Sequence record: MK327935.1
From: Escherichia phage vB_EcoM_G2494
Direction: 5' to 3' (one strand)
DNA length: 64,000 nt
Made by a program: the position numbers and the translations under genes. Below the pieces are notes generated by a model. It had not been told where the DNA came from. It worked only from the letters and a program-made list of their open reading frames with translations, and made no database searches. Positions 31,493 through 58,018 of this stretch are shown here, piece by piece; position 1 is the stretch's first letter, and each line of letters opens with the position of its first letter.

Positions 31493-32314
31493 TTATGCAT
31501 CCTTCCAAACTTTCCTTGCGTCGTATTTCTTGCCTTTTGACATAAACTGATATGTCGGCATATAGATAATATTGCTCCAGTCTTTCGGGCTAATCTCAAC
31601 AAGTTTTGTTTTAATGTGTCCCGGTAGATATGCTTTGATCATGTGATCACTTCCACGCATACCTTTTACATCGCTCCATTTGATTTTTAAGCGTGTTTTA
31701 TTGCTCAAGGTAGGAGTAGATGCATATTGCTTTAAAAGTGCTTCCAGAAACTGCTGACGGGCTTTAGGCGTTACATAGTGTAAGTTAAGACCCAGCATTA
31801 CAGTATTACCCGCCTTTGTCTTAGAATCACCCAGACAAATGATCAGCGGGAAAACATCCCAATATGGCAAAGTGTCTTTATACTTCGCATCATACATAAA
31901 GGTATAGATTCGCCCTACTTGCGGTTTTACAATCTGGTGTCCCTTTATTCCCGCTTTTATTGTTTTAGTAAACCACTCCTGTGATTTTTCTTTAGGACGA
32001 CTCTTTGATACAGCACGCATAGACGCACGAAAATCATTAATCATCATCATTGCGCGTTGCTGCTTATTGAGACCCTTTGCGCCTTTCCCTTTTAGTTTTT
32101 CAACTTCTATTGCTGTTTTAATTTCGCTGGCATAACGAGACATACTTTTAGTGAAAGTCGCATAGGCTATTCCCTTAGAATCTGCAAATGCTTTAGCTGT
32201 CATGCCTTTGGCTTTTGCTTTCGCAAATTCTACACCCAATTCGACCCACTGTTTAGACTTTCGTTTTTGGGGAGACGGCTTTTCGTCTTCTGTGATTATT
32301 TCAAATACGCTCAT
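31493..32314 (-). CDS. 2: DNA end protector protein
   Basis: 273 aa (T4 gp2 is 274 aa); synteny. Confidence 0.7.
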   Translation of the reverse strand: MSVFEIITEDEKPSPQKRKSKQWVELGVEFAKAKAKGMTAKAFADSKGIAYATFTKSMSRYASEIKTAIEVEKLKGKGAKGLNKQQRAMMMINDFRASMRAVSKSRPKEKSQEWFTKTIKAGIKGHQIVKPQVGRIYTFMYDAKYKDTLPYWDVFPLIICLGDSKTKAGNTVMLGLNLHYVTPKARQQFLEALLKQYASTPTLSNKTRLKIKWSDVKGMRGSDHMIKAYLPGHIKTKLVEISPKDWSNIIYMPTYQFMSKGKKYDARKVWKDA

Positions 32315-32325
32315 AATATTATCCT

Positions 32326-32802
32326 CTATTTGTTAAGCCCTTTAAAGCCAAACACTTTCTTTAATGCATGTTCGGTGATGATCTTAAACTCCATGTTATG
32401 CTTTTGACATAAATCAACCGCAGCTTTCCACTTTTCCGTGTTTACAGTATATGTGTAACACTCTTGCATATATCTTTGCTTAGTCTTAGTGGTTATTCTT
32501 TTTGGCCTTTCTGGTGGCCTTGTCTCTTTTGCTGGTTTTATTTCCCATAAATGCTCTTTACCATCATCAAACTTAACGTATATATCCATGTAGTAGCGCC
32601 TTTTTTTGTTATCGGCGCTGGACCAGTATGGAATCACTACGGTCTCTGACCCCCATTTAGCGACTCTAGGGTTACGGTCTAGCCACTTAAAAATGTGCAA
32701 CTCCCAGCTTGACCTATACGTTATTTTATGCAAGTTATTCCCTTTGTACTTCTCAGGATTTTCCGGTCTATACTTGCCCTTATAAGTGTTAGATCCTCCC
32801 AT
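32326..32802 (-). CDS. 4: head completion protein (nuclease-like fold)
   Basis: 158 aa; synteny; YRSSWELHIFKW...YYMDIYV...HLWEIKP motif block. Confidence 0.7.
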   Translation of the reverse strand: MGGSNTYKGKYRPENPEKYKGNNLHKITYRSSWELHIFKWLDRNPRVAKWGSETVVIPYWSSADNKKRRYYMDIYVKFDDGKEHLWEIKPAKETRPPERPKRITTKTKQRYMQECYTYTVNTEKWKAAVDLCQKHNMEFKIITEHALKKVFGFKGLNK

Positions 32803-35852: not shown

Positions 35853-36605
35853 ATGAGGTGTTTTATGATTAAAGTGCATGACGATTTCAAAGAACTTTAT
35901 AATGTATGCTCTGAACGTTTTTATTATGATGAAACGAGCGGAACAATTAGACGAAAATATGATTGTAAGAGCAATCATTATAAAGCGGGTGATGTAGTAG
36001 GATATAAAAGAAAACAAAAAAGAACAAATAGTGAAGATGATGTGTTCTATATGTTTACTAAGATTGATGGAGTTTCTTATTCAATTCAACAAATTGTCTT
36101 CTTGCTTACCGAAGGGTATATACCCAATTGCATCGATCATATTAACAGAGACACACTAGATAATCACCGTGAAAATCTTCGTGATGCATCGCGAAGCGGA
36201 AATGCTCGCAATAAATGCAAGGTATATAAAAATGGTTTCGCCTCTTCCGATTACATTGGTGTGTCTAAGCGGGGTTCTGGATTTAGGTGTCGTATTAGAA
36301 TAGACCATGTTATTGCATATGATGAAACGTTCGAAAATGAAACATCTGCCGCATATGCATATAACGTAGAATGTATAAAATTAGGTGTCAGTGAGTATAC
36401 CAACTTTAATAAATTTGAAGACGAAGAATCTGTTAGGAAACTTTACGAAAAAGAGAAAGAAAATAAAGAGTTTCAAGAATATTGGAAGGGAACACATAAA
36501 CAGGGTAAACGATGGGGCGCTAAAGTTAAGAGTGTGCGTTTGGGTACATTCGAAACAAGGGAAGAAGCTAGACTAGCTATAATTCGCTACAAAGAGGGGT
36601 TTTGA
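35853..36605 (+). CDS. HNH homing endonuclease (AP2/HNH_3-like), freestanding
   Basis: 250 aa; [21 protein letters not shown] motif; inserted between 5.1-like gene and gp5.4; own CATAAATA/TATAAT-like upstream signals. Confidence 0.75.
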
Positions 36606-36898
36606 TGGCTGGTTTATCATATGACAAAGCAAAAACTACTGGACATGGTAATTACGGTCCGACAATAATTAATGCAACTCAATCTAAGGTATTTGTTGAG
36701 GGTATCCCTGTATTAGTCGAAGGAGACCCAATTACACCACATACAAAAACAACAAAGCCTTATGATACACACGGGGGAACTACGGTCGCCAGTACCCCGA
36801 AAGTATTTGTTACCGGAAAGAAAGCAATTCAAATGGCAGATCGTATTAGCTGTGGCGATACCGTCGCTATGGCATCACCGAAGGTATTCATAAAATGA
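36602..36898 (+). CDS. 5.4: baseplate spike tip PAAR-repeat protein gp5.4
   Basis: 98 aa (T4 gp5.4 is 97 aa); position between 5 and 6. Confidence 0.7.
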
Positions 36899-52751: not shown

Positions 52752-53507
52752 ATGAAAAACTATTATCTATACGAAATAAAGAACAATATAAATGGTAAGA
52801 TATATGTTGGCATTCGTGGGTATGATGGTGACATAAGTCAAGATCCTTATATGGGTAGTGGATTGACTCTTAAGAGGTCTATTAAAAAGAACGGGATAGA
52901 AAACTTCACAAAAACAATTCTCAAAACGTTTGACTCATGGAAAGAGGCAAGGAAAGCAGAAAGAGAAATAGTTACAGAGGAATTTGTAAAAAGAGAAGAT
53001 ACCTATAATGTTTCGGTTGGTGGACAAGGTGGAAATACTCACGCTGGGATGAGCGAAGAACGAAGAAAACTTGCAAGCGAAAGACACGCAGAAGCAAACC
53101 GAAATAGAGTATGGAAGCAAGAATCTAGAGATAAGGTTAGCGCAAGATTCAAAGGTCATAAGCTATCACAGAAGCAGATAGACGCGCTAAAGAAGGCAAA
53201 CACAGGAAGAAAGTTCACAGAAGAACACAAGTTCAAAATAGGTAAAACGTGGCGAGGAAAGAAACGACCAGATATAGGAGAGAAGGTTGCGGCAAAATTA
53301 ACAGGGAGAAAACTACCCCCAGAACATGTGGCAGCAATAACGCAAAATACACCGAGAGGAAAACAACACTTTAGGGCAAAAAGATTCTTCATCGACGATA
53401 TGGAATTTTATATTTTGAGTGACGCAGCTAAAATGTTTGGTATAAGTTATAAAACGGTTAAAGCTAGACTTCTCTCAGATAAGTTTCCTACATGGAGATA
53501 TGAATAA
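52752..53507 (+). CDS. GIY-YIG homing endonuclease (Seg-like) with NUMOD-type repeats and C-terminal HTH
   Basis: 251 aa; YLYEIKNNINGKIYVGI (GIY-x10-YVG), downstream R/E/N catalytic residues, repeated GxKxSxE-like modules; inserted between genes 14 and 15. Confidence 0.8.
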   Translation: MKNYYLYEIKNNINGKIYVGIRGYDGDISQDPYMGSGLTLKRSIKKNGIENFTKTILKTFDSWKEARKAEREIVTEEFVKREDTYNVSVGGQGGNTHAGMSEERRKLASERHAEANRNRVWKQESRDKVSARFKGHKLSQKQIDALKKANTGRKFTEEHKFKIGKTWRGKKRPDIGEKVAAKLTGRKLPPEHVAAITQNTPRGKQHFRAKRFFIDDMEFYILSDAAKMFGISYKTVKARLLSDKFPTWRYE

Positions 53508-54396
53508 ATGTTTTCACATTTTTACAATTCGTCAATTAGACGGTATATTGTATTGCTGGGTAATTTATTCTCCGGCGTACAAATTAAAAGGGTGCGTAGC
53601 GACGGTGAGCGTTTTATTAAAGTTCCTATCACCTACGCAAAGAAAGAAAAATTCATGATGAGTCTGGACAAATATAACAATATCTCAAGTGAGGAAGACG
53701 TAGCAAAGGTAGAAACTATTTTACCGCGTATGTGTCTTTCTTTGATTGATATGACATACGCCCAGAACTTTAAAACAAATATTGCAAATAAGACAGTACC
53801 AAAATATACGGCTGATGGAATCAGGAGCGTAACACAATATAATCCTGTACCATATAAGTTTACTTTCGAGTTAGGGATTTATACGCGTACAATATAATCC
53901 TGTACCATATAAGTTTACTTTCGAGTTAGGGATTTATACGCGTAACGAAGATGATATGTTTCAGATAATTGAACAGATTCTTCCTTACTTCCAGCCTCAT
54001 TTTAACTGTAAGATTAAAGAACTACACGGTAATGATGTATGGATTGATCGAGATATTCAGGTCACTATTAGTTCTATTACTCCAGATGAACAGGTAGGCG
54101 AAGATAAGTTTTCTCGTCGTCGTCTTGAGTGGACCATTATGTTCGAATTTATCGGCTTTATATATCCTCCAGCTACCGACGTTAAGGGGGAAATTAGAAC
54201 GATTTATCTTGATTTTCATGCTAATTCTCGTGAATTAAATCCTAGCGGTAATTTTGAATCAGTGGATCACGAGGTCGTTAAACGTGACGTCGAGCAAGAA
54301 GATTGGGACGGAACAATCAAAGAATCATATTCTAGTGATATTCCAATACCAGTTGCACCAACTCCACCGGGTCCACGTATTGTAAGAGAATTTTAA
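53508..54396 (+). pseudogene. 15: gene 15 (tail sheath stabiliser/terminator) split by a frameshifting 55-bp tandem duplication
   Basis: ORF track gives 53508-53897 (129 aa) and 53956-54396 (146 aa) in different frames; combined length about 277 aa matches T4 gp15 (272 aa); second ORF has no SD; removing one repeat copy restores one frame. Confidence 0.7.
53834..53943 (+). repeat. perfect tandem direct repeat, 2 x 55 bp
   Basis: acaatataatcctgtaccatataagtttactttcgagttagggatttatacgcgt occurs twice head-to-tail (53834-53888 and 53889-53943). Confidence 0.85.

Positions 54397-54409: not shown

Positions 54410-58018
<3,609 letters not shown>

Follow-up and report, generated by a model that had tools for sequence, protein, structure and literature searches.

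Gene 4 and the divided gene 17

The window analysed here is a whole stretch of 64,000 nucleotides from Escherichia phage vB_EcoM_G2494 (MK327935.1), part of an RB49-like coliphage (genus Krischvirus) whose gene 16-18 region is 98.8% identical to that of Escherichia phage kaaroe. Two of its genes concern us: gene 4, which encodes the head-completion nuclease gp4 (32326-32802, minus strand), and gene 17, which encodes the large terminase gp17 (TerL) and is divided by an inserted element between two open reading frames (ORFs), here ORF1 and ORF2. A first-pass annotation had proposed that the C-terminal part of ORF1, taken as the nuclease domain of a terminase intein, parallels gp4; the interval it gave, 32326-32802, covers the gp4 partner only, the terminase partner being about 24 kb away.

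Gene 4 is a 158-aa ORF that adjoins gene 2 (31493-32314) and faces genes 53 and 5, its canonical position. A PHROG search matched its residues 5-149 to phrog_218 'head closure' (5.5e-59), its homologues are named 'head completion protein' or 'Head completion nuclease', and it has the properties by which we recognised gp4 orthologues, namely a length of about 150 aa, a stand-alone gene, a full-length family match and gene 2/4/53 surroundings. It is thus the resident core head-completion nuclease of T4-like phages, with a TnsA-like PD-(D/E)XK fold that carries E34, D73, E87 and K89. This kind of fold, like that of TnsA and T7 endonuclease I (Endo I), has been predicted for gp4 since 2005 (Kosinski et al., PMC1189080), and gp4 is described as a TnsA-like virion nuclease of the restriction-endonuclease fold, its DNase activity having been shown by Benler et al. 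2020 according to the account in PMC7824862.

ORF1 (583 aa, 54904-56655; this and all other features of the locus are on the plus strand) begins as gp17. Its N-extein, TerL residues 1-254 as far as the Walker B motif ...FIYIDE (54904-55665), matches Terminase_6N (1.4e-25). The uninterrupted gp17 of RB49 (607 aa) reads ...FIYIDE|CAFIQNW... at Walker B, and the sequence of the insertion site in intein-less gp17 is ...ATTGATGAA|TGCGCATTT.... The element, 1288 nt long (55666-56953), sits precisely at the Walker-B DE|C, with E254 on one side and C255 on the other. Beyond it the C-extein (56954-58015) starts at Cys+1 (CAFIKNW...) and continues to the end of TerL, corresponding to residues 255-607 of RB49 gp17 and matching the C-terminal part of Terminase_6N and Terminase_6C. 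The two exteins (254 + 353 = 607 aa) are collinear with RB49 gp17, from which they differ at 20 of 762 and 11 of 1062 nucleotides respectively, and the junctions read FIYIDE|C...HN|CAF.

Exactly where the match to RB49 gp17 breaks off, ORF1 continues with a putative N-terminal intein piece (IntN, 55666-55755) of about 30 aa, whose C-terminal boundary is approximate and which holds Cys1 and intein block A only; from Cys1 to the stop at 56655 ORF1 has 329 residues. The middle region of this extension (residues 285-440, 55756-56223) contains two Cys4 clusters, CSTKGC...CHNYC at residues 352-378 and CPEC...CRKC at residues 401-419, and is presumed to be the DNA-binding part of the fused endonuclease; it matches Zn_ribbon_3 weakly, and the second ribbon is kept in a free-standing 199-aa protein of Pseudomonas phage PspYZU05. 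There follow a conserved KILNGEFTP linker and a PD-(D/E)XK domain with E493, D528, E539 and K541 (residues 441-583 and stop, 56224-56655). ORF2, which uses another frame, begins at 56636, within the last 20 nt of ORF1, and has an ATG and a Shine-Dalgarno sequence of its own, GAGGA at 56623-56627, 8 nt before the ATG and inside the last nuclease codons. This arrangement of GAGGA and then ATG is common to three diverged loci, those of the window, of PspYZU05 and of a further locus, L005. The first 106 codons of ORF2 (56636-56953) encode the C-terminal intein piece (IntC), with blocks B, F and G and the ending ...NNVESHN.

A predicted atypically split intein

The closest match to IntC was the 'Consensus engineered intein CatC' (PDB 6DSL_B; phmmer E=7.1e-13), over residues 5-108 and including the block-B His and the terminal HN; matches to DnaE inteins were weaker. 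Searching the PDB with the window IntN for the CatN fragment gave no match, the query probably being too short. AceL-TerL was reportedly described by Thiel in 2014, GOS-TerL by Bachmann and Mootz in 2015 and the consensus Cat intein by Stevens in 2018 (PDB 6DSL). AceL-TerL and GOS-TerL are natural, atypically split terminase inteins, broken after helix α1 so that IntN has 25-37 aa and IntC about 104, and Cat is their consensus (PMC11766414, PMC13014065). Trans-splicing of the AceL/GOS-TerL inteins is known experimentally (PMC11766414), and the 'Terminase' (gp17) locus of GOS is broken after motif N1 with a long C-part (Dassa 2009, PMC2677866).

As the marks of such a split intein we took 25-37 aa for IntN and about 104-122 aa for IntC, the latter with blocks B, F and G. 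The window element has them, with the caveat that its IntN continues in frame for about 300 residues, unlike a short free IntN; the IntN-side ORF stops 43 aa after Cys1 in PspYZU05 and 33 aa after it in one of the loci surveyed below (L075). The splicing nucleophiles Cys255 of ORF1 and Asn106 and Cys107 of ORF2 are present and are kept in L005, PspYZU05 and the surveyed loci, and IntN is conserved in L005, PspYZU05 and the database proteins P0137 and P0140. On the CatC match, the sizes of IntN and IntC and the point of the break, the element belongs with the atypically split inteins of the GOS-TerL/AceL-TerL/Cat family. Of the 'terminase intein' first proposed, the intein in the terminase gene thus stands, whereas its supposed form, contiguous with an internal endonuclease domain, does not, as the intein is split after its first helix and its C-terminal piece is a separate ORF.

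Relationship of gp4 to the ORF1 nuclease domain

The peptide strings on which the likeness to gp4 had been based were all located, those of gp4 in the 32326-32802 ORF and those of the terminase at 56368-56589 in the 54904-56655 ORF. The gp4-like domain of ORF1 extends over residues ~465-583 (56296-56652). BLASTP aligned it with gp4 at 29% identity over 83 aa (E=2e-4), and the Smith-Waterman score was 74, against 32±5.7 for shuffled sequences (z of 7.3 with the nuclease domain shuffled and 7.1 with gp4 shuffled); a single shuffle in 6000 scored as high (Gumbel p≈4e-5). With PF08722 (Tn7_TnsA-like_N; gathering score 26.5 bits), gp4 at 73.6 bits and ORF1 at 34.5 bits are both above the cutoff, and among the matches listed this domain was present throughout, in 11 close relatives of the insert and in 120 gp4 homologues. 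PHROG matches were reciprocal, ORF1 finding the gp4 family phrog_218 (2.4e-9) and gp4 finding the endonuclease family phrog_15427 (1.7e-4).

Comparison of two family alignments, one of 24 gp4 homologues and one of 11 relatives of the terminase-attached domain, gave an hhalign probability of 98.9% (E=2.9e-17) over 112 columns. The alignment spans almost all of gp4 (residues 7-150), from G-x-[YF]-x-P through RSSWE, the catalytic D, E-[IV]-K-P and the KW..A..(W)C helix to the terminal F-x-I-I-T-E; an insertion of about 22 residues after the ExK motif is specific to gp4 and lacks a counterpart in all of the nucleases. The D...E-x-K-like core proposed in the first-pass annotation is genuine, since E34/D73/E87/K89 of gp4 and E493/D528/E539/K541 of ORF1 occupy invariant family columns.

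Structure prediction agreed with this. The AlphaFold (AF2) models, with pLDDT of 92.9 for gp4 and 86.3 for the ORF1 nuclease, show secondary-structure elements in the same order, with the catalytic E...D...(D/E)xK on an α-β-β-β-β-α-β core, and for both the best fold match in the PDB is Tn7 TnsA (1F1Z/1T0F; Foldseek TM-scores 0.41-0.56). The comparison of the models rests on these shared top fold matches, on the secondary-structure order and on a Foldseek viral match to a 'Head completion nuclease' (rank 20, E=1.5e-6, TMq 0.54). Neither shuffle-like scores nor unrelated folds, the outcomes that the first-pass annotation had set against its own proposal, were seen.

T7 Endo I was the only solved structure matched by the ORF1 domain in sequence (E ~1e-3, with FRSxxE...D...ExK aligned), and ORF1 scored 29.0 bits with Phage_endo_I and 1e-46 with phrog_15427. 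A hidden Markov model (HMM) of the nuclease family matched all 121 gp4-family sequences (median 39 bits) but T7 Endo I at 19.5 bits only, the sequence used for the latter having been checked against the PDB matches over residues 15-69. Conversely, the gp4 HMM matched 156 of 158 nuclease domains and did not match T7 Endo I. These strong cross-matches, beside the weak one to T7 Endo I, argue that the relationship is specific rather than generic. The nuclease HMM gave no score above 7 bits with any other ORF of the window, which holds no further member of the family by this measure. The gp4 protein and the C-terminal nuclease domain of ORF1 are thus homologous, if only through a remote ancestor, and both are predicted to cleave DNA in a Mg2+-dependent manner. 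The ORF1 domain is not a gp4 orthologue, as it scores only 38 bits with phrog_218, has a different context and falls outside the gp4 clade.

Family and distribution of the fused endonuclease

An exhaustive search with the linker and nuclease domain as query found 1665 family representatives at 50% clustering, 666 of them at E≤1e-10. Most are 280-500 aa long with the nuclease at the C-terminus; among the members are proteins with NUMOD3 motifs or with the annotation of a putative homing endonuclease. In PspYZU05 the 199-aa member is free-standing between TerL-N+IntN and IntC+TerL-C, in three ORFs. The fusion of IntN to the nuclease is shared by the Krischvirus carriers, L005 and four database proteins (P0132, P0133, P0137 and P0140), and the mirror-image fusion nuclease-IntC-TerL-C is found in another (P0148).

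The family is likewise associated with a helicase. Two proteins (P0186, P0232) join it to helicase IntN pieces, and at two loci (L016, 1498-5232; L017, 152-2653) a UvsW-type helicase gene is split at the Walker-B/motif II DE|C by a split intein of the typical kind, with an IntN of ~95 aa and an IntC of 35 aa, and a free-standing NUMOD3 + gp4/TnsA-like endonuclease (P0008) lies between the helicase halves. The I-D-E|C motif at the helicase insertion is similar to that of the terminase, a hint that the targets are recognised in related ways.

We surveyed 80 IMG/VR loci with this type of IntC. A free-standing member of the nuclease family lay between the TerL pieces in 38 of them, truncated remnants of 60 and 129 aa included. 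No member was found upstream in 39, of which 9 had no TerL N-part in the locus, and in some only a 24-nt spacer separates IntN from IntC. The remaining three (L024, L067 and L096) hold contiguous mini-inteins at the same DE|C site. Since none of the 80 has an in-frame IntN-nuclease fusion, that of the window is a rare variant. Remnants (L050, 3314-3493; L052, 3107-3493), a nuclease-less split intein (L075, 190-4713) and the mini-inteins, all at one site, look like stages of a cycle of homing-endonuclease gain and decay.

Among phage records matching the locus, 5 of 64 carry the element; most Krischvirus records lack it and have an intact empty site of otherwise identical sequence. Among the Krischvirus carriers purifying selection acts on all parts of the element. 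In comparison with the carrier phage phiS (dS ~0.2), dN/dS was 0.07-0.10 for the nuclease and 0.01-0.05 for IntN and IntC; for the middle region it was 0.02-0.25.

The 200 nt upstream of the element (55466-55665) are 96.5% identical to kaaroe, and the best matches (97.5%) are phages without the element, which suggests local mosaicism beside the insertion.

Interpretation

In our judgement it is probable that this genome holds two homologous nucleases with different jobs, the one in ORF1 being the homing-type endonuclease of a split TerL intein, and that its likeness to gp4 goes back to a distant common ancestor in the TnsA/Endo I-like PD-(D/E)XK clade rather than to recent derivation from the resident gp4. 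The endonuclease is encoded between the halves of a self-splicing element and is sporadic among relatives with an intact empty site, as is usual for homing endonucleases. ORF1 would be translated into TerL(1-254)-IntN(~30 aa)-endonuclease(~300 aa) and ORF2, from its own Shine-Dalgarno sequence and ATG, into IntC(106 aa)-TerL(255-607). IntN and IntC would associate and splice in trans through Cys1, Cys+1 and the terminal Asn, thereby restoring the 607-aa gp17 and freeing IntC and the IntN-endonuclease, which would probably stay bound to each other. In a mixed infection the endonuclease would attack gp17 alleles that lack the intein, cleaving them at the insertion site or close to it, and recombinational repair would copy the whole element into the cut allele. 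We infer trans-splicing because gp17 is essential, the carrier phages in GenBank are viable, and IntN and IntC are under purifying selection; DNA cleavage, its specificity and homing are inferred likewise.

Several observations weigh against this interpretation. An artificial fusion of IntN and IntC matched none of the intein HMMs of Pfam and NCBIfam, so that the assignment to inteins rests on the CatC and DnaE matches and the junction residues. Evidence of co-conversion is weak: only a silent GAT>GAC at -4 tracks the element, in 7 of 7 carriers, which are not independent, and in 2 of 7 empty alleles. An extension of ~300 aa at the C-terminus of a 30-aa IntN might hinder splicing. Lastly, the fusion is perhaps not the sole form of the enzyme, as an in-frame ATG-ATG at 55747/55750 (residues 282/283), with GAGG upstream, is a candidate start that could give a separate endonuclease, though it is not conserved in the relative P0001.

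Two further observations concern the element. No T4-type late promoter (TATAAATA) was found inside it, and an apparent grouping of five differences from RB49 in the ±25 nt around the insertion, considered as a mark of co-conversion or target immunity, mostly disappeared once more alleles were compared. GenBank records call ORF1 a 'hypothetical protein', a 'DNA packaging enzyme' or the 'terminase large subunit', a systematic mis-annotation; labels such as the first arise because generic intein HMMs miss the element.

The best-surviving alternative is that the nuclease is not, or never was, a homing enzyme and has been domesticated to serve DNA packaging or head completion with the terminase. 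The strong purifying selection and the physical attachment to a terminase fragment would fit this, the closest non-self family is a morphogenetic nuclease which the account in PMC7824862 gives as non-specific after Benler et al. 2020, and HNH nucleases that cooperate with terminases offer a precedent (discussed in PMC10448857). Yet most close relatives, RB49 and Phi1 among them, package their DNA without this nuclease, the family also occurs between the split-intein halves of a helicase gene unrelated to packaging, and decayed and nuclease-less versions exist at the same terminase site. As zinc ribbons or NUMOD modules followed by a C-terminal nuclease are moreover the typical architecture of homing endonucleases, we regard domestication as unlikely.

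The proposal that the domain 'derives from, or shares ancestry with' a gp4-type fold held in its second half only. A recent origin by duplication of the resident gene 4 within the genome, one copy passing into the intein, could draw on three facts: the two families are each other's closest detectable relatives, nearer than T7 Endo I, they resemble each other outside the catalytic core too, in the N-terminal G-x-[YF]-x-P and the C-terminal F-x-I-I-T-E, and both occur in T4-like phages. Against it stand the identity of only 29%, the size of the nuclease family with its spread over Campylobacter, Bacillus, Proteus and Pseudomonas phages, the gp4 insertion after ExK that no nuclease shares, and a rough neighbour-joining tree, in which gp4 forms its own clade (81% bootstrap; nuclease clade 54%) and the window nuclease is not nested within it. 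Derivation from the resident gp4 is therefore not supported, and we consider it very unlikely. With a T7 Endo I sequence, verified over residues 15-69, as outgroup and a sample of nucleases biased to close relatives, the tree does not settle polarity, and the 54% for the nuclease clade leaves both directions possible, gp4 from a mobile lineage or the reverse. By sequence, the closest detectable relatives of gp4 are these intein-associated endonucleases.

A further possibility is that the break between ORF1 and ORF2 is a frameshift, by sequencing or assembly error, as a pseudogene or as a programmed +1/-2 event, in an intein that is really contiguous with an internal endonuclease. The 20-nt overlap of the ORFs and the contiguous mini-inteins at this site in other phages could be read in this way. 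The two-ORF layout is, however, no assembly artefact: five coliphages sequenced independently in several countries and deposited in GenBank (kaaroe, vB_Eco_SAP, TB34, phiS and JK32) share it, as does a metagenomic T4-like contig whose ORF1 homologue is 57% identical across the intein-nuclease part, and the break is identical in all of them. The Shine-Dalgarno sequence and ATG are conserved at the start of the C-terminal piece, the nuclease is a separate ORF in PspYZU05 and 38 of the IMG/VR loci, IntC starts after a non-coding spacer in nuclease-less loci, the AceL/GOS-TerL family splices in trans in experiments (PMC11766414), and on inspection we saw no canonical slippery heptamer in the overlap. 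A frameshift thus seems most improbable.

Finally, the idea that gp4 and the ORF1 domain share no more than a generic PD-(D/E)XK fold or motif, by convergence or chance, to which the short motifs common to such nucleases, the low pairwise identity and the modest TM-scores with TnsA lend some colour, is effectively refuted by the statistics given above, from z≈7 against shuffles and the 112-column profile alignment to the shared PF08722 matches, the near-complete HMM cross-matches and the 7-bit ceiling for other ORFs of the window, and we give it next to no credence.

Returning to the homing endonuclease of a split intein, a broader and more speculative form of this interpretation is conceivable, though we would not bet on it. 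TnsA/gp4-like PD-(D/E)XK enzymes may be an unrecognised major family of homing endonucleases and the chief partner of the atypically split inteins of terminases and of some split inteins of helicases, with gp4 as a domesticated offshoot or as the source, and the IntN-endonuclease fusion and IntC may reassemble non-covalently after splicing into a bifunctional particle. If so, the fusion in the window would represent a living link between endonucleases that stand alone and those truly embedded in an intein, in a genetically tractable E. coli phage.

Neighbouring and related elements

Beside gene 4, the gene 2 ORF (31493-32314, minus strand) weakly matches, with residues 15-63, the C-terminal helical region of the gp4-family HMM (14.4 bits; E=6e-4 among 405 window segments), which may reflect only a Lys/Ala-rich composition.

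Upstream of gene 17, gene 15 (tail sheath stabilizer, 277 aa) is split into ORFs of 129 aa (53508-53897) and 146 aa (53956-54396). Its frame is shifted by 55 nt repeated perfectly in tandem (53834-53888 = 53889-53943), which RB49 does not have; this duplication is either a genuine mutation, and then probably deleterious, or an artefact of assembly. Where RB49 has only a 26-nt spacer, between genes 14 and 15, lies a 251-aa ORF for a GIY-YIG/I-TevI-type endonuclease (52752-53507, plus strand), with a match to the I-TevI DNA-binding domain (1.4e-7) and weak ones to SegE GIY-YIG and NUMOD3; it is probably another free-standing homing endonuclease insertion. A 250-aa HNH_3 endonuclease ORF (35853-36605, plus strand), between the gene-5 region and a small ORF (36602-36898), is probably another mobile endonuclease.

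The terminase gene has a second intein site in other phages. Escherichia phage FL15 (L003, PP400778.1; 1005-3821) has a contiguous intein of ~331 aa with a LAGLIDADG-like motif at the Walker-A site of gp17, with junctions …RQLGK|ALDVN…THN|TTAVAIF…, in a gene mis-annotated as 'replicative DNA helicase DnaB'; FL04 and ELT3 also have it. A related Walker-A intein and a Walker-B IntN-endonuclease are found together in one ORF (P0133, 803 aa). A middle fragment of a terminase (P0140, 542 aa) starts with an IntC at Walker A (…GILSHN|TSALAIY…) and ends with an IntN and endonuclease at Walker B, which implies a large terminase in three pieces, joined by two different split inteins.

Significance

The fold and activity of gp4, atypically split TerL inteins and the concept of fractured genes were already known, and the resemblance between gp4 and the ORF1 domain itself mostly confirms Pfam and the earlier predictions of the gp4 fold. 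In the literature searched, whose coverage is incomplete, we found no description of the in-frame fusion, of the role of this nuclease family or of its presence in cultured coliphages, and a paper of 2024 states that none had been reported from coliphages until then, inteins being meant (PMC11162368). Cultured coliphages of the RB49 group carry an atypically split terminase intein, a kind formerly characterised from metagenomes and valued as a protein-labelling tool, and they offer a tractable system for natural trans-splicing of an essential packaging motor. The endonuclease family lies outside the kinds listed for fractured genes (GIY-YIG and Vsr-like). At one and the same site its members occur as stand-alone genes, as fusions to IntN or to IntC and as decayed copies, or are missing altogether, which comes near to a full record of an endonuclease invading an intein and splitting a gene. 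Its nearest relative is an essential morphogenetic nuclease, so that the recruitment of core phage functions from selfish nucleases, or the reverse, becomes testable.

Comparison with known systems

The ORF1 domain shares the fold and the E-D-ExK constellation of Tn7 TnsA (PF08722; 1F1Z, 1T0F) and T7 Endo I (PF05367; 1M0D, 1FZR). Unlike TnsA it has neither the TnsA C-terminal domain nor a transposon context, and its likeness to T7 Endo I is one of sequence and fold, no sign of junction-resolving activity or of a domain-swapped dimer having been seen. Among homing endonucleases, I-Ssp6803I also belongs to the PD-(D/E)XK superfamily, in a different subfamily from the ORF1 nuclease. The Vsr-like I-Bth0305I (PMC3239194; PDB 3R3P) is a homing enzyme with a restriction-endonuclease fold and a weak fold match of the ORF1 model (E=4.6e-3); its active site is of the EDxHD/Vsr type, whereas the ORF1 family has the classical E-D-ExK and is much closer to gp4 and TnsA.

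By profile comparison, the T4 gp4 family is the nearest non-self family of the ORF1 domain. The gene 4 product of the window is the orthologue in that family, of the same length, in the same place by gene 2, and with the PF08722 fold and an intact E/D/ExK. The ORF1 domain differs in that it lacks the insertion of ~22 residues, has zinc-ribbon or linker modules at its N-terminal side, and is sporadic, inside a mobile element.

With the atypically split TerL inteins the window element shares a gp17-type terminase as host, the break after block A/helix α1, an IntN of ~30 and an IntC of ~105 aa, Cys1 and Cys+1. The known ones are metagenomic and were studied as isolated fragments, whereas this one is found in cultured E. 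coli phages and its IntN bears an in-frame endonuclease extension of ~300 aa.

The layout as a whole recalls the 'fractured genes' of Dassa et al. 2009, in which the N-part of a gene with IntN, an endonuclease, and IntC with the C-part of the gene follow each other on one strand, in a phage gene of DNA metabolism. Their exact three-ORF form is found with this nuclease family in PspYZU05 and the 38 IMG/VR loci. Dassa et al. list only GIY-YIG and Vsr-like (EDxHD) enzymes, whereas that of the window is a PD-(D/E)XK enzyme like TnsA, Endo I and gp4; and as neither stop nor spacer separates IntN from the endonuclease here, the fractured gene of the window consists of two ORFs instead of three.

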